Translations under genes and position numbers: made by a program | Shown here: positions 27,660 through 32,388 of the stretch, one piece after another | Position numbering within the stretch: the stretch's first letter is position 1 | How the letters are laid out: every line of letters starts with the position of its first letter | Notes under the pieces: generated by a model | Database searches by the model: none | What the model was told of the DNA's origin: nothing | What the model saw: the letters and a program-made list of their open reading frames with translations, nothing else | Assembly: GCA_049589355.1 (NCBI GenBank) | Contig: JBAWAP010000384.1 | Coordinates: 2,349-66,348 of the forward strand | DNA: 64,000 nt | Source of the DNA: Anaerolineae bacterium | Lineage (GTDB): Bacteria; Chloroflexota; Anaerolineae; VGOG01 | Direction of reading: 5' to 3'

Positions 27660-30659
27660 CTAACTTGCGATGGGTTGTGAGGCAAGCAAACCCTTCAGAA
27701 ACTGCCCCGTGTAACTCCCTGCCGCCTGCGCCACTGCCTCCGGCGTCCCCTGGGCGACGATGTAGCCGCCAGCGTCGCCGCCCTCCGGTCCCAGGTCCAC
27801 GATCCAGTCGGCGGTCTTGATCACGTCCAGGTTGTGCTCGATGACGATGACCGTGTTGCCGGCGTCGGTCAGGCGGTGGAGCACGTCCAGCAGCTTCTGG
27901 ATGTCGGCGAAGTGCAAGCCGGTGGTGGGCTCGTCGAGGATGTAGACGGTGTCGCCGGTGGACACGCGGGCCAACTCCTTGGCCAGCTTGACCCGCTGCG
28001 CCTCGCCACCGGAGAGCGTGGTGGCGCTTTGGCCCAGTTTGACGTAGCCCAACCCCACGTCCACCAGTGTCTGCAGGATGCGCTTCACCTGGGGCACATT
28101 GCCGAAGAACTCCAGCGCCTCTTCCACATCTATGTCCAACACCTCGGCGATGTTCTTGCCCTTGTAGCGGATCTGCAGCGTCTCGCGGTTGAAGCGCGTG
28201 CCCTTGCACACATTGCACGTCACCCACACGTCGGGCAGGAAGTGCATCTCCACCTTTCTCTGACCATGACCCTGGCAGGCCTCGCAACGCCCACCTTTGA
28301 CGTTGAAGCTGAACCGACCCGCCTTGTAGCCGCGCGCCTTGGCCTCGGGTGTCAGGGCGAACAGGTCACGGATGTGGTTCATCACCTGGACGTAGGTGGC
28401 CGGGTTGGAGCGGGGCGTCCGTCCGATGGGGTCCTGGGTGATGCTGATCACCTTGTCCACCTGGTCCAGACCCTCAATGCGGTCATGCTGGCCCGCTTTC
28501 TGGGCCGCGTTGTGCAGTGCGTTCGTCAGCGCAGGGTGAAGCGTCTGCGCCACCAGCGACGACTTGCCGCTGCCCGAGACCCCTGTGACGCAGGTGAACA
28601 ATCCCAGAGGGAAGCGCACCTCCAGGTCCTTGAGGTTGTTCTGCCGTGCGCCGACGACTGCGAGCCACTTGTTGTTGGTCGGCCGCCGCTGGCCATTGGG
28701 CGGCGTCACCTGCAACTCACCGCGCAGGTAGCGTCCGGTCAGTGAGTCTGGATGGTCAATGATCGCCTGCAGCGGGCCGGCGGCCACCACCCAGCCGCCG
28801 TTGATGCCTGCCCCCGGGCCCAGGTCCACGATCCAGTCGGCGGTGCGCATCGTCTCCGCGTCGTGCTCGATGACGACGACCGTGTTGCCCATGTCGCGCA
28901 GATGCTCCAGCGTATCCAGCAGGCGGCGGTTATCGCGGGCGTGCAGGCCGATGCTGGGCTCGTCCAGGATGTAGAGCACCCCTACCAATCCGCAGCCGAT
29001 CTGGCTGGCCAGCCGGATGCGCTGCCCCTCGCCGCCGGAAAGCGTGGGCGCAGAGCGGTCGAGCGTCAGGTAGTGCAATCCGACGTTAAGCATAAACTGG
29101 AGGCGGTCACGGATTTCTTTCAACACCTCCTCGGCGATGGTGAACTGTTCGGGGGATAGAAGGGATTGGGTATTGGATATTCCCGGCCACAGACCCTCGA
29201 CCCACTCTAGCGCCTCCCCGATGCTCAAGGCCGTGACCTGGTTGATGGTCTTGCTGCCGATGGTCACCGCTGCACTTTCGGGCCGCAGCCGCTGGCCGTG
29301 ACAGGTGGGGCAAGTCTGCTGGCTCATGAATTTGGTGTACCACCGGCGCATGCCCTCCGATTTTGTCTGCCGGTAGCGGCGCTGGGTCGCGTTGACCGTC
29401 CCCTCGTAGTTCCATTCTCCTTGCCACGTGGCCCGCGCGCTTTCCGACTCCCAGATCACTCTGACACCGCCGTACAAAATGGCTTGTTGGCACTCCCTGG
29501 AGAGTTCCCGCCAAGGTGTATCCAGATCTTGCCCGAAATGCCCCGCGATTTGCTGCACGACCTTGTACGTGCCGCTGGACTTCTTCTTACCCAGTTCGCC
29601 CCAGGTGCGGACGCCGCCCTCGTGCAGAGTCTTATCTGGGTCAACGAACTGGTCGGGATCGAACTCGACCTTGGTGCCCAGGCCATTGCACTCAGGGCAC
29701 ATGCCCATGGGCGAGTTGAAGCTGAACATGGCGGGCGTCAGTTCGGGGAAGCTCACCCCGCACACCGGGCAGGCGTTCTGCTCAGAAAGCAGCCACTCGT
29801 CGCCGTTGCCTCGGTCAATGATCACCAGGCCATCGCCTGCCCGCAAGGCGGTCTCCACGGAGTCGGTGAGACGAGAGCGAAATCCAATGGGTAACGAGTC
29901 AACGAGCAACAAGGTCTCCTCATCACCCATTACCTGGTTACTCATTGCCTGATTACTCATTACCTCATCACTCGTTAACTCGCTCCTCCCTGGAACCACC
30001 AACCGATCCACCACCAACTCAATGTTGTGCTTCTTTTTCTTGTCCAGTTTGATCTTCTCATCCAGTCCTCGCACCTCGCCATCCACTCGCACGCGGGAGA
30101 AGCCGTCGGCGCGAGCCTGGGCAAACACGTCCTGAAATGCACCTTTGCGGTTACGGGCCAGCGGGGCCAACACCTGGAGGTGCGTACCGTCCGGCAGCGC
30201 GGCCACCTGCTCCACAATCTCCTGCGCCGACTGGGCGTGGACCTCGCGACCACACTGCGGGCAGTGCGGCGTGCCCGCGCGGGCGAAGAGCACCCGCAGG
30301 TAGTCGTAGATCTCCGTCACCGTGCCTACCGTCGAGCGGGGGTTCTTGCTCACCGCCTTTTGCTCGATGGCAATCGCCGGGCTGAGCCCGCCAATGAAGT
30401 CCACCTTCGGCTTCTCCATCTGGGCGATGAACTGGCGGGCATAGGCGGAAAGCGACTCGACGTAGCGGCGCTGGCCCTCGGCGTAGAGGGTGTCGAAGGC
30501 CAGCGACGACTTGCCGCTGCCGGAGACGCCAGTGATCACCACCAGCTTGAAGCGCGGCAGCCTCACGTCAATGTTCTTCAGATTGTGTTCCTTGGCTCCA
30601 CGGATGAGAATCTCGTCAGGGTACATGCTCTGGAACAACCTCATAACGAAGCCACACAC
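27660..30659 (-). CDS. uvrA: Excinuclease ABC subunit A paralog (full-length UvrA-like, two ABC modules)
   Basis: 999 aa; [14 protein letters not shown]-terminus, two Walker A (GVSGSGKSS), zinc fingers, ABC signatures. Carries an in-frame palindromic-element insertion (...[11 protein letters not shown]...). Confidence 0.9.
29889..29984. repeat. Palindromic GTAACGAGTCAA-family element, copy A, inserted in-frame in the uvrA paralog
   Basis: GGTAACGAGTCAACGAG ... CACTCGTTAACTCGC inverted arms. Two further copies at 40494-40584 and 48581-48650. Confidence 0.55.
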
Positions 30660-31383
30660 GTCCCTCAGCCTGAACTTGGGCGGAAATCAGTTTTAGCCGC
30701 GTTGGCCACTCGTCAGGCTGTAACGCTGGCGCGTCAAACAGGGCTGGCGTCTCGACCCCGCCGATTACAGCGGGAAAGAACTCGATGCTGATTTCGTCTA
30801 CAAGCCCAGCACGCAAGAGCGCGCCGTTCAACTTGCCCCCAGCCGTTGACACCACACATGTAACACCCAACTGGTACCCCAGCTTCTCCAGGGCAGCGTG
30901 AAGATCAACTCGCTCTTCCCCTGCCACCAGGTAGGGAATCTTTTCGCGCTGGAGGTAGGCCAGATACTCGGGTGGAGTATGGTGGGCTACCAGGACCAGC
31001 AGGTGCCACCCTTCCCATCCCTCAAATTCTTTGTAAAACCATCGTACGCGTCCTCGACTATCCACAGCCGTGAACCACCCCTGATGTCCCGGACGATGGA
31101 CGACATCGTGTGGCAAAAAGTCCTGATACAGTGACTGAGGATCATCGTCAACGGGCGGGAGAGGCTCGGGCTCCGCGTCATTCAAAACAAAAGAGCCGCT
31201 GCCTTCAAGAAAGACTTGTGGTTTGTAGGTAAGCTTGAGCCGTTCGTATACATCGTCGCTTGATCCCGCGACAGCCTGCCATCTCTCGTCCCCGTATAGC
31301 AGAAGGACATCGGGTGCAAGCGTTATCCTCCCATCTACTGAAGCAACTGCATGGACTACCACTCGTGGTCTGTCCATAGACAC
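30616..31383 (-). CDS. Dihydrofolate-reductase-like RibD C-terminal domain protein
   Basis: [14 protein letters not shown]...[15 protein letters not shown]. Overlaps the uvrA 5' end. Confidence 0.75.
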
Positions 31384-31425
31384 TTTCCTCCTCTGTTCAA
31401 AATTGTGCCAGGTATCTTGAATTTA

Positions 31426-32388
31426 TCATCCAACGGATGCGTACTGCGCTGCGATGGCGCGGGCCCGTTCGCTCACCAGGCAACGTAATTCCTCCGGCTC
31501 CAGCACCACGGCGTGGGGGCCATAACTGAACGCCAGCCGGGCCGGCCACTCCAGGTCTAACGCGGCGAAGGTGACGATCACCGAGCCGTCGGGCTGCTCG
31601 TCCACCGTGTCCCAGAAGGCACGGTCATCGAGCGCCAGGAGCGCCGCCTCTGGGGCGAAGCACATGCGGACTTGCACCTGTGGCTGTGCCTCTGGCTCCG
31701 CAGCCAGGTACTCCTGGATGTCGAAATCGCCTGGCACCTGGAAGATCTGGTTGAGCAGTGTCAGTTCGATGATGCGATCCACGCGGAAGGTACGCACGGC
31801 CTCGCGCAGGTGGCAGTGGCCGATGACGTACCACCAGCCCCAGCGGTGGATCAGCGCATAGGGATCGAAATCTCGCTGCAGGGGTTCTGACTGCCCACGG
31901 CTCCGGTAGGCCACCGTGACTCGTCGCCGCTCACGGGTCGCGCGCCGCAGTTTCTCCAGCAGCGGTACCAGCGGCGTGAAGTCGGCGCGGTGCATACCGG
32001 TCGCCCACAGTGTCCGACGCGCCCAGGCCACTTCGTGCCGCTGTTCGTCGGGGAGCACGTTAACCAGCTTGGCCAGCGCGCCTTGCGCCGCCTCACGGTA
32101 CATCTGGCCCCAAATCTCTTCCACCAGGCTGGTGCCCAGATAGACGGCGACGGCCTCCTCGGGGGTGAAAACAAGCGGGGGCATCTTGTAGCCACGCACT
32201 AACGAGAAGCCGCCGTAGGGGCCGCGCTCGGAGTAAACCGGGATGCCCATCTCGTCCAGCATCATGATGTAGCGGTGCAAGGTGCGCACCGAGATACCCA
32301 ATTCCTCCGCCAGTGCAGCCGCTTTCTGGCTGGGTCGCCGCTGCAATAGCATGATCAGTGAGATCAGTCTGGTAGCAGTGTTCAACAT
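31426..32388 (-). CDS. WYL-domain transcriptional regulator (HTH-WYL-WCX, YafY/PafBC/DriD-like)
   Basis: N-terminal HTH (SVRTLHRYI), central WYL (HRWGWWYVIGHCHLREAVRTFRVDRI), C-terminal WCX-like region. Confidence 0.8.
   Translation of the reverse strand: MLNTATRLISLIMLLQRRPSQKAAALAEELGISVRTLHRYIMMLDEMGIPVYSERGPYGGFSLVRGYKMPPLVFTPEEAVAVYLGTSLVEEIWGQMYREAAQGALAKLVNVLPDEQRHEVAWARRTLWATGMHRADFTPLVPLLEKLRRATRERRRVTVAYRSRGQSEPLQRDFDPYALIHRWGWWYVIGHCHLREAVRTFRVDRIIELTLLNQIFQVPGDFDIQEYLAAEPEAQPQVQVRMCFAPEAALLALDDRAFWDTVDEQPDGSVIVTFAALDLEWPARLAFSYGPHAVVLEPEELRCLVSERARAIAAQYASVG

Follow-up and report, generated by a model that had tools for sequence, protein, structure and literature searches.

The WYL-uvrA locus

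We have analysed a 64-kb stretch of DNA from an uncultured Anaerolineae (Chloroflexota) bacterium (called the window here), in which the gene of a WYL-domain regulator stands at the head of a compact group of genes that includes uvrA, and which we think probably forms an operon inducible by DNA damage. The sequence read for the source organism comprises the window and a 6.3-kb Logan contig. For comparison more than 120 loci were fetched, labelled L002 to L123, several of which are short metagenomic contigs. The genes of the group are as follows, in the order in which they would be transcribed.

31426-32388, minus strand: WYL regulator, 320 amino acids, with HTH_11, WYL and WCX domains
30616-31377, minus strand: RibD_C-like protein, 253 amino acids, PF01872
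27660-30626, minus strand: UvrA, 988 amino acids, class I
27249-27659, minus strand: VOC/glyoxalase/bleomycin-resistance-like protein, matching Pfam Glyoxalase (60 bits) and Ble-like_N
26743-27252, minus strand: GNAT acetyltransferase, frameshifted, matching Pfam GNAT families over residues 42-106 only

An earlier annotation made from the sequence alone (the first-pass annotation) had the content and coordinates of the first three genes right but not their order, which is WYL, RibD_C, UvrA, all on the minus strand. The overlap that it described between the RibD_C and uvrA genes is real and amounts to 11 nucleotides (nt), the ATG of uvrA occupying 30626-30624 and the TGA of RibD_C 30618-30616; however, RibD_C comes before uvrA and not after it. 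The starts found in the window were also obtained when genes were called independently on the Logan contig. The spacings between successive genes are 48, -11, 0 to 34 and -4 nt, i.e. VOC starts 0-34 nt past the uvrA stop codon, and GNAT overlaps the stop codon of VOC by 4 nt. The GNAT reading frame is broken after about codon 108, as judged from L010, where the gene right behind uvrA encodes an intact homologue of 161 amino acids (81% identical), and the window gene is either a pseudogene or affected by a sequencing error. WYL, RibD_C, uvrA and VOC (together with GNAT) are probably co-transcribed. The GC content at third codon positions (GC3) is alike for WYL and UvrA (0.80 and 0.83), while RibD_C and VOC are compositionally foreign (0.56 and 0.51).

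The WYL regulator

The regulator matches the Pfam families HTH_11 (44 bits), WYL (82 bits) and WCX (59 bits). Its best matches in the PDB are to PafBC of A. aurescens (6sj9, 2e-22), and to M. smegmatis PafC (7p5x, 3e-16 over residues 6-317) and PafB (7p5x, 2e-13), whereas the match to CapW is far weaker (1e-5). Six residues of PafB, R181, Y196, R204, R208, R211 and R214, are experimentally required for the binding of single-stranded DNA (ssDNA) (PMC11804915). In the HMMER alignment to 7p5x_AY all six are conserved in the WYL protein, as R172, Y187, R195, R199, R202 and R205 respectively. The nearest structures and the retained ssDNA-binding residues thus bear out the first-pass assignment to the HTH-WYL-WCX regulators of the PafBC/DriD class. 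We regard the protein as PafB/PafC-like, encoded by a single gene and presumably homodimeric; neither a second WYL gene nor pafA was present among the protein family matches of the window.

BrxR, CapW and the CRISPR-associated WYL proteins offer another precedent, by which the protein would be a repressor and the TGNCA dyad described below would be its operator, overlapping an otherwise ordinary promoter and released on DNA damage or on binding a ligand. In PADLOC the regulator is matched by generic WYL models, as such a role would lead one to expect, but by no others, and no defence-system proteins were detected among its neighbours. Of eight other proteins submitted to PADLOC six gave nothing, while UvrA matched mad3 and mad8 through its ATPase module and, more weakly, some ABC-ATPase models. 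Moreover the structures closest to the regulator, at 1e-13 to 1e-22, are those of the PafBC activators.

A promoter with a -26 element

The region upstream of the WYL gene contains two elements that are conserved in relatives.

32430-32461, minus strand: WYL-type hybrid promoter, with distal half-site TGCCA (32461-32457), proximal half-site TGTCA(T) (32451-32446) and -10 hexamer TAGAAT (32435-32430)
32405-32417, minus strand: palindrome CGTCC-ATC-GGACG, located in the WYL 5' leader

On the minus strand from 32461 to 32430 the promoter reads TGCCA-GCTTT-TGTCAT-AAACCTGGTG-TAGAAT, so that 10 nt separate the proximal half-site from the -10 hexamer. The proximal half-site TGTCA(T) occupies the place of the '-26 element'. 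At 16-18 nt from the -10 the hexamers are CAGCTT, AGCTTT and CCAGCT, none of which resembles a -35. The in-vivo consensus for PafBC is tGTCgg(N10)tA(N3)T, i.e. a '-26 element' together with a canonical -10 and no -35 (PMC8635444), and the window promoter, TGTCAT-N10-TAGAAT, fits this geometry.

This promoter occurs once in the 64-kb window, where no other copy was found and 0 would be expected by chance. It is kept before WYL orthologues of 76-86% identity (L090, L114-L118, L120 and L123), before a 45% identical homologue in L003, and before RibD_C in loci that have no WYL gene. In all eight of the nearest Anaerolineae uvrA loci (L002-L009) the motif lies 65-210 nt upstream of uvrA. Searched as a regular expression over 1.72 Mb of loci it gave 34 matches, all but one of which stand before a Chloroflexota uvrA, WYL or RibD_C gene, or are divergent from such a site (the minus-strand copies in L007, L107 and L108). 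In 80 uvrA loci (1.34 Mb) it was found 11 times, compared with 1.0 expected. The half-site TGNCA is nearly palindromic, and in several loci the two form a true inverted repeat, TGACA-N5-TGTCA, which can equally be written GAC-N7-GTC. This has the spacing of the DriD/DdaA box, CGAC-N7-GTCG (PMC13010146). The WYL gene is thus headed by what we predict to be a conserved promoter element of the PafBC type.

The first-pass annotation had proposed a search for an inverted repeat upstream of WYL. Among inverted and direct repeats within 32380-32520 only trivial pairs of 6-7 nt are found, and it is the comparison of loci that yields the TGNCA pair; the operator is visible only in this way because the distal half-site of the window is degenerate. 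Two other promoter candidates were considered. One, TTGTCA-16-TATTGT, was discarded, since the relatives conserve the -10 at N10 but not the -10 of this candidate. The other, TTGATT-16-TACAAT, lies further upstream and is conserved in only some of the WYL-bearing loci.

The palindrome of the leader is kept as (C/T)GTC(C/T)A-N-GGACG in L090, L114, L117, L118 and L123, and may serve as an additional operator or fold into a hairpin in the RNA. A scan of the window against Rfam at gathering thresholds gave a tRNA-Gly only, and no leader RNA family. We also note short tandem repeats between the WYL-type promoter and the start of uvrA or WYL in L003 (15010-15300) and in the uvrA leaders of L004-L009, for example CACCTTT/CACCATT in L003, GCTGGTT in L006 and CTGATAG in L009.

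Some of these features would also suit a repressor. The derivatives without WYL that keep the promoter and an intact RibD_C all have a consensus or nearly consensus -10 (TATAAT, or TACAAT in L089), as would suit constitutive expression once a repressor is lost, and the conserved palindrome in the leader is a further potential site. Against this, the lack of a -35 and the presence of a GTC at the exact spacing seen with PafBC speak for an activator, and the motif is found before uvrA in loci that have no adjacent WYL gene, as expected of the promoter of a regulon. We therefore consider it rather unlikely that the WYL protein represses this operon, and favour its action as an activator.

LexA boxes and possible dual control

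The first-pass annotation had placed LexA boxes in the promoter preceding the module and proposed that it may be under dual control by LexA and the WYL factor. The relevant features are these.

37466-37515, minus strand: LexA-type promoter, with -35 TTGACA (37515-37510), -10 TATAAT (37492-37487) and two GAAC-N4-GTTC boxes
36486-37445, minus strand: AlkD-like HEAT-repeat DNA alkylation repair protein, matching DNA_alkylation (46 bits) and HEAT_2 (56 bits)

The boxes are real, and both are perfect matches to GAAC-N4-GTTC. One (37496-37507) lies within the spacer of a perfect TTGACA-17-TATAAT promoter and the other (37466-37477) just downstream of it. Boxes of this type are found in Firmicutes and Actinobacteria, and in a variant form in Chloroflexi (PMC4951493, citing Fernandez de Henestrosa 2002). 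However, the first gene behind the promoter is that of the AlkD-like protein, and the boxes belong to this promoter and not to that of the WYL gene, the start codon of which is 5.1 kb and seven genes away. The 109 bp directly upstream of WYL contain no LexA box with up to one mismatch, nor is there one nearer to uvrA, and the E. coli-type box CTGT-N8-ACAG has no match in the window. Control of uvrA by LexA would therefore be only indirect in the window. Read-through from the LexA promoter into the WYL-uvrA operon is possible, since all the genes in between run in the same direction at short spacings, and the prediction gave no terminator-like site on the minus strand between 37445 and 26033.

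In the relatives the two kinds of site are brought together. L004-L008 have the WYL-type promoter, followed by TAGAA(A/C)-N4-GTTC(T/C)A and then a second hexamer, TGnTATAAT, and L007 has an additional perfect LexA box 26 nt from the start codon. In L120 a LexA box with one mismatch lies right behind the -10, and in L121 a perfect box lies upstream of the motif. Because LexA and WYL-type sites stand in tandem before uvrA in these loci the idea of dual control is well founded for the clade.

UvrA is of class I

All the elements of a canonical UvrA can be identified in the protein encoded here. The UvrB-binding domain (PF17760, UvrA_inter), which lies within signature domain I, is matched at 117.8 bits over residues 143-223 and aligns to T. 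maritima UvrA, and the insertion domain (PF17755, UvrA_DNA-bind) at 83 bits over residues 334-443. Pfam ABC_tran also matches. Walker A motifs (GVSGSGKS) are at residues 33 and 682, signatures (LSGGE) at 529 and 871, and Walker B motifs ((L/V)YILDEP) at 551 and 894; six CxxC pairs, at residues 122, 286, 310, 439, 781 and 804, make up the three zinc modules. The only unusual feature of the protein is a stretch of some 36 low-complexity residues (212-247), inserted behind the UvrB-binding domain. The protein exceeds the cut-offs of the equivalog NF001503 (1431.7 bits, cut-off 1147) and of TIGR00630 (1365.4 bits, cut-off 729.8). It was compared with the class I structures of T. maritima (9gxk/3pih), G. 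stearothermophilus (2r6f) and M. tuberculosis (3zqj), and its alignments to 9gxk, 2r6f and 3zqj extend over the whole length, at 1100-1233 bits. The class II UvrA2 of D. radiodurans (2vf7) gives 727 bits, and 7sh1 gives 486 bits. The chain of 7sh1 is labelled 'Excinuclease ABC subunit UvrA', and we take it to be the echinomycin-resistance protein Ecm16. Homologues of the window UvrA in the protein database form a dense continuum from 91% down to 77% identity without a separate paralog clade, those named by their source being called excinuclease ABC subunit A or UvrA. Among the loci listed by a scan of the genome collection, the closest are from Anaerolineae/Anaerolineales metagenome-assembled genomes (MAGs). 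On its sequence we assign the protein as a complete, canonical class I UvrA of nucleotide excision repair.

The first-pass annotation had called it a UvrA paralog reminiscent of drug-resistance proteins of the DrrC type, and from this comes a different explanation of the locus, namely that an accessory UvrA and a DHFR-like protein work together as a module of resistance to genotoxins or antibiotics, comparable to DrrC or Ecm16, with the housekeeping uvrA elsewhere. Paralogy here was an interpretation rather than an observation. The UvrA proteins of class II and of the DrrC and Ecm16 type lack the UvrB-binding domain. The resistance-paralog explanation fails because this domain, whose absence defines that class, is present, and the equivalog scores and the far better match to class I structures agree. 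Positional orthology is favoured by the promoter motif, which is shared with the uvrA genes of other Anaerolineae loci, and neither the identity continuum nor the number of copies suggests a paralog: none of the more than 120 fetched loci, including those from a genome-collection scan that lists one locus per assembly, came from an assembly with two copies. Finally, the closest orthologous locus has no RibD_C gene. The resistance explanation can call on the variable island of AlkZ-like, AlkD-like, GyrI-like, VOC/Ble-like and GNAT genes in which uvrA lies (to which a pentapeptide-repeat protein is added in L119), on the loss or truncation of uvrA at this position in close relatives, and on L109, where a RibD_C homologue (63%) is found beside ABC-2 permeases and a UvrA without a UvrB-binding domain. 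On balance we find it distinctly unlikely, and treat the gene as what is probably the orthologous class I uvrA. No uvrB, uvrC, lexA or recA was found among the protein family matches of the 64-kb window.

Two loci have altered forms of the gene. L091 (6734-7747) encodes a 'mini-UvrA' of 337 amino acids, in which the N-terminus of module I up to and including its Walker A motif is fused to the remainder of module II; it is 83% identical to residues 655-981 of the window UvrA. In the window gene the two stretches coding for Walker A share an exact repeat of 22 nt, so this could be either a real recombination or a collapse of the assembly. The PADLOC model mad3, of a UvrA-like protein of 374 amino acids, matches the same half of UvrA as is present in the mini-UvrA. 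In L082 (8752-9061) and L083 (6049-6358) uvrA is reduced to precisely its first 12 codons, behind RibD_C. The sequence beyond them is found in L091 about 2 kb downstream of uvrA, and both assemblies stop 300 nt further on. This looks like removal of uvrA by deletion (MAG GCA_030589485.1). The truncated and the deleted uvrA may both be assembly artefacts.

Conservation of the WYL-uvrA adjacency

The organization of the closest loci is given below, with the identity of their UvrA to that of the window.

L123, UvrA 91%: promoter-WYL-uvrA, RibD_C absent
L090, UvrA 86%: WYL (frameshifted)-RibD_C-HIT protein-uvrA
L092, UvrA 85%: promoter-RibD_C-uvrA
L119, UvrA 85%: promoter-RibD_C-pentapeptide-repeat protein-uvrA
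L120, UvrA 83%: WYL-uvrA beside the his operon
L121, UvrA 82%: LexA box, motif promoter, internally deleted WYL remnant, DUF3795, uvrA

WYL and uvrA are neighbours in L123, L120 and L090, and as a remnant in L121, each time in otherwise different surroundings. The linkage of the regulator with uvrA that was first proposed from the window thus recurs in its nearest relatives, and the PafBC-type promoter precedes uvrA in related Anaerolineae. By this comparison the conserved core is promoter-WYL-uvrA, and RibD_C and VOC are cassettes added around uvrA by lateral acquisition.

Some loci have probably lost the WYL gene secondarily, namely L082, L084, L091, L092 and L110. In L082 and L084 the promoter stands directly before RibD_C, but the leader retains a fragment of the 3' coding region of WYL (z = 6 and z = 4 respectively, relative to shuffled sequences), which in both loci corresponds to the same position of WYL. 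The significant match in the leaders of L091, L092 and L110 is to the spacer between WYL and RibD_C; L091 has in addition a weaker, exact match of 12 nt to the WYL coding region of L090. In loci that keep the promoter without WYL, this promoter would have to be served by a WYL factor in trans or else be active in its absence.

The WYL orthologue also heads other genes. In L114-L116 it is directly followed by VOC (65% identical to that of the window), in L117 it heads UDG and other genes within an array of AlkD-like, DUF3795, DinB_2, AlkZ-like and GNAT genes, and in L118 it heads AlkZ-like and GNAT genes.

The RibD_C-like protein

The protein encoded between WYL and uvrA can be assigned to a superfamily only. 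It matches PF01872 at 57 bits (cut-off 24) but fails the equivalogs of riboflavin reductases, i.e. TIGR01508 (56.4 bits, cut-off 186), TIGR00227 (51.6, cut-off 150) and NF010663 (27, cut-off 184), and there is no match to Pfam DHFR_1. The best match in the PDB is a Rib7-type reductase, 6p8c (4.5e-13), followed by 5xv0 and 2azn; of the three, 6p8c and 2azn carry the annotation pyrimidine reductase. These matches cover residues 90-246, and residues 1-90 are unmatched.

A functional pairing of this protein with UvrA had been proposed in the first-pass annotation, and it does not survive the comparison. RibD_C occurs without uvrA in L084, L085, L095-L100 and others, while the closest orthologue of UvrA, at 91% identity, is accompanied by WYL but not by RibD_C. 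Where both are present they may be separated by another gene, by that of a HIT protein in L090 and a pentapeptide-repeat protein in L119, and the GC3 of RibD_C is foreign to that of its neighbours. Because homologues of 65-92% identity are found across Anaerolineae, Bipolaricaulia and Theionarchaea, in many other contexts, we conclude that RibD_C is a horizontally spread cassette that was inserted between WYL and uvrA. L109 (2-3605) does have the kind of pairing that the first-pass annotation had in mind. Here the RibD_C homologue is followed by two ABC-2 permeases and then by a UvrA-like protein with an insertion domain and without a UvrB-binding one, a DrrAB/DrrC-like arrangement belonging to another lineage and not found at the window locus.

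RibD_C is nevertheless often placed behind promoters of the damage type. It lies behind the WYL-type motif in at least 10 loci, behind the motif and two LexA boxes in L107 and L108, and in L088 a perfect LexA box precedes DUF3795-RibD_C. These promoters, together with the wide spread of closely similar sequences and the uvrA neighbours (of class I here and class II-like in L109), suggest a role in the response to damage, which is plausible. A more specific proposal, that the reductase is a DNA-damage-response enzyme functionally tied to proteins of the UvrA family, we regard as doubtful, though worth stating; if it were one, it might be an NADPH-dependent reductase of an imine or iminium genotoxin, or of a ring-opened (Fapy-like) nucleotide.

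We note that in L107 (1600-1997) and L108 (110-500) the WYL-type promoter occurs twice, in divergent orientation, in a single intergenic region that also has two LexA boxes. This region is flanked by a RibD_C homologue (58%) and by a homologue (60%) of an uncharacterized protein of 318 amino acids encoded at 25768-26724 of the window. This location suggests that the family of the 318-amino acid protein may be regulated by damage as well.

The surrounding gene array

The operon lies within an array of about 31 kb (6154-37445) whose genes nearly all run on the minus strand. Features of the array and its borders include the following.

7362-8651, minus strand: AlkZ-like protein, DNA glycosylase family
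18340-19317, minus strand: HhH-GPD-like protein, below the Pfam cut-off
19927-20604, minus strand: UDG-like protein, DNA glycosylase family
35869-36489, minus strand: FMN_red/flavodoxin-like gene, split into open reading frames of 81 amino acids (36244-36489) and 120 amino acids (35869-36231)
37738-37812, plus strand: tRNA-Gly(CCC), with its own TTGACT-17-TATAAT promoter (37694-37722) and a terminator (37818-37850)

The FMN_red gene is probably split by a frameshift. The AlkD-like and HhH-GPD-like proteins likewise represent DNA glycosylase families. Besides four DUF3795 proteins the array also encodes families of detoxification and small-molecule chemistry, namely DinB_2/DUF1706 and GyrI-like proteins, VOC, three GNAT proteins, a radical SAM enzyme, a methyltransferase, short-chain dehydrogenases (SDRs) and an aldo-keto reductase carrying a 4Fe-4S domain. 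The families of the array are met again near homologues of WYL and RibD_C in other Anaerolineae contigs (L084, L117, L118 and L119). The array begins right beside the tRNA-Gly(CCC) gene, which is divergent from the LexA-boxed promoter. A start next to a tRNA is typical of the insertion of an island; no integrase was found at this end of the array. Elsewhere in the window, at 59355-62176, a reverse transcriptase (RVT_1, 527 amino acids, minus strand) lies beside a tyrosine recombinase/integrase (356 amino acids, plus strand), in the stretch of lowest GC content of the window (0.48-0.53). This is probably a mobile element or retroelement.

Such surroundings raise the question of whether the adjacency of WYL and uvrA is incidental, the region being a hotspot of unrelated cassettes that are each expressed separately and share no regulation by damage. 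The gene content around uvrA varies in almost every relative, RibD_C and VOC are of foreign composition, and frameshifted genes occur in the region (GNAT, FMN_red, and WYL in L090). Yet the WYL-uvrA adjacency and the promoter motif survive this flux, start and stop codons overlap, no terminator-like site is predicted on the minus strand between 37445 and 26033, and the cargo is drawn throughout from families with a link to DNA repair or genotoxins. We consider an incidental association very improbable, and return to a common operon.

Proposed mechanism

Our interpretation is that this is a DNA-damage-inducible operon of Anaerolineae, headed and most likely controlled by a WYL factor like PafBC, SiwR and DriD; we would put the probability of this at roughly 0.6. 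From the sequence we infer the sensing of ssDNA, activation rather than repression, co-transcription and read-through. In the proposed mechanism DNA damage would generate ssDNA, which would bind to the WYL domain via the conserved arginine and tyrosine residues. The activated dimer would then occupy a pair of TGNCA half-sites spaced by 10 bp (GAC/GTC-N7-GTC), with the proximal GTC located at the '-26 element', and so allow the housekeeping RNA polymerase to use the TAGAAT promoter without a -35. The resulting transcript would encode WYL (giving positive autoregulation), RibD_C, the class I UvrA, the VOC/Ble-like protein and the frameshifted GNAT. LexA would independently control the head of the surrounding array, with any effect on uvrA exerted via read-through.

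Several observations weigh against this interpretation. The distal half-site in the window is degenerate (TGCCA), and a consensus scan accepts TTGTCA-16-TATTGT as a weak ordinary promoter with 9 of 12 matches. In PafB the GTC triplet is read by R46 and R50; these can be matched to R35 and R39 of the WYL protein (in VRTLHRY) by a constant offset of 11, although the HMMER alignment starts only at residue 44. The adjacent WYL gene has been lost or has decayed in several relatives which nonetheless keep the promoter and an intact RibD_C, and the deletion of uvrA in L082/L083 and its truncation in L091 indicate that some lineages can do without the gene at this site.

The locus supplies a defined promoter element of 32 bp and a candidate regulator for it, and the motif can be used to predict the regulon in MAGs of a phylum that is mostly uncultured. 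The natural series of variants, with WYL intact, frameshifted or internally deleted and the cargo swapped, shows how the operon evolves. It is also an example of a UvrA amid resistance-like genes that need not be a resistance paralog.

Comparison with known systems

WYL activators that sense ssDNA and govern damage responses independent of LexA are known in Actinobacteria (PafBC and SiwR), Caulobacter (DriD) and Acinetobacter (DdaA). In mycobacteria uvrA is PafBC-dependent (PMC10693628), and the predicted regulon of DdaA in Acinetobacter includes uvrA and recA (PMC13010146). A full-text search of the literature found no report of a WYL-uvrA damage system in Chloroflexota.

The component proteins have close counterparts. 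Class I UvrA of E. coli, G. stearothermophilus, T. maritima and M. tuberculosis has the same full set of domains and aligns over its full length; the window protein differs by the insert of about 36 residues and in its unusual gene context. With UvrA of class II or the resistance type (2vf7, DrrC) it shares the tandem ABC ATPase and zinc modules, and its neighbourhood is likewise rich in resistance-like genes. The RibD_C protein has the fold family of the Rib7/RibD reductase domain and the DHFR-like superfamily, but is found behind damage-type promoters and not in rib operons.

Among the regulators the greatest similarity is to PafBC of Mycobacterium and other Actinobacteria, which acts by 'sigma adaptation'. 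They have in common the HTH-WYL-WCX organization, the ssDNA-binding residues, the GTC-N10-(-10) promoter and uvrA as a target, and PafBC also coexists with a LexA system that uses GAAC-N4-GTTC, as here. However, PafBC is a heterodimer of PafB and PafC that uses one tGTCgg element, whereas here there is one gene, presumably giving a homodimer, and two half-sites, TGNCA-N5-TGNCA. Furthermore the regulator gene shares an operon with uvrA and is not linked to pup-proteasome genes, and the host belongs to the Chloroflexota. SiwR of M. smegmatis resembles the present regulator in being a homodimeric, single-chain WYL activator that is adjacent to the operon it serves (dinS), acts at the -26 region and responds to genotoxic stress; genes of the DinB/DinB_2 family likewise occur in the arrays here. 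Its element is a GGA triplet, however, and its targets are DinB/YfiT-like proteins and not uvrA. DriD of Caulobacter and DdaA of Acinetobacter are homodimeric activators whose dyad has the same GAC-N7-GTC spacing, but their sequence similarity to the window WYL protein is much lower than that of PafB and PafC. In one case the DdaA box is about 160 bp upstream of aciT, while here the proximal half-site replaces the -35. For a defence regulator of the BrxR/CapW type an adjacent defence system would be expected, and PADLOC found none here.

Since the control of uvrA by WYL activators, and single-chain activators that work at -26, were both already known, the locus indicates that a known kind of LexA-independent damage response extends to Chloroflexota, where it would operate alongside LexA. 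Its local peculiarities are a regulator encoded within the uvrA operon, a dyadic site at a PafBC-like position, and an exchangeable cargo.

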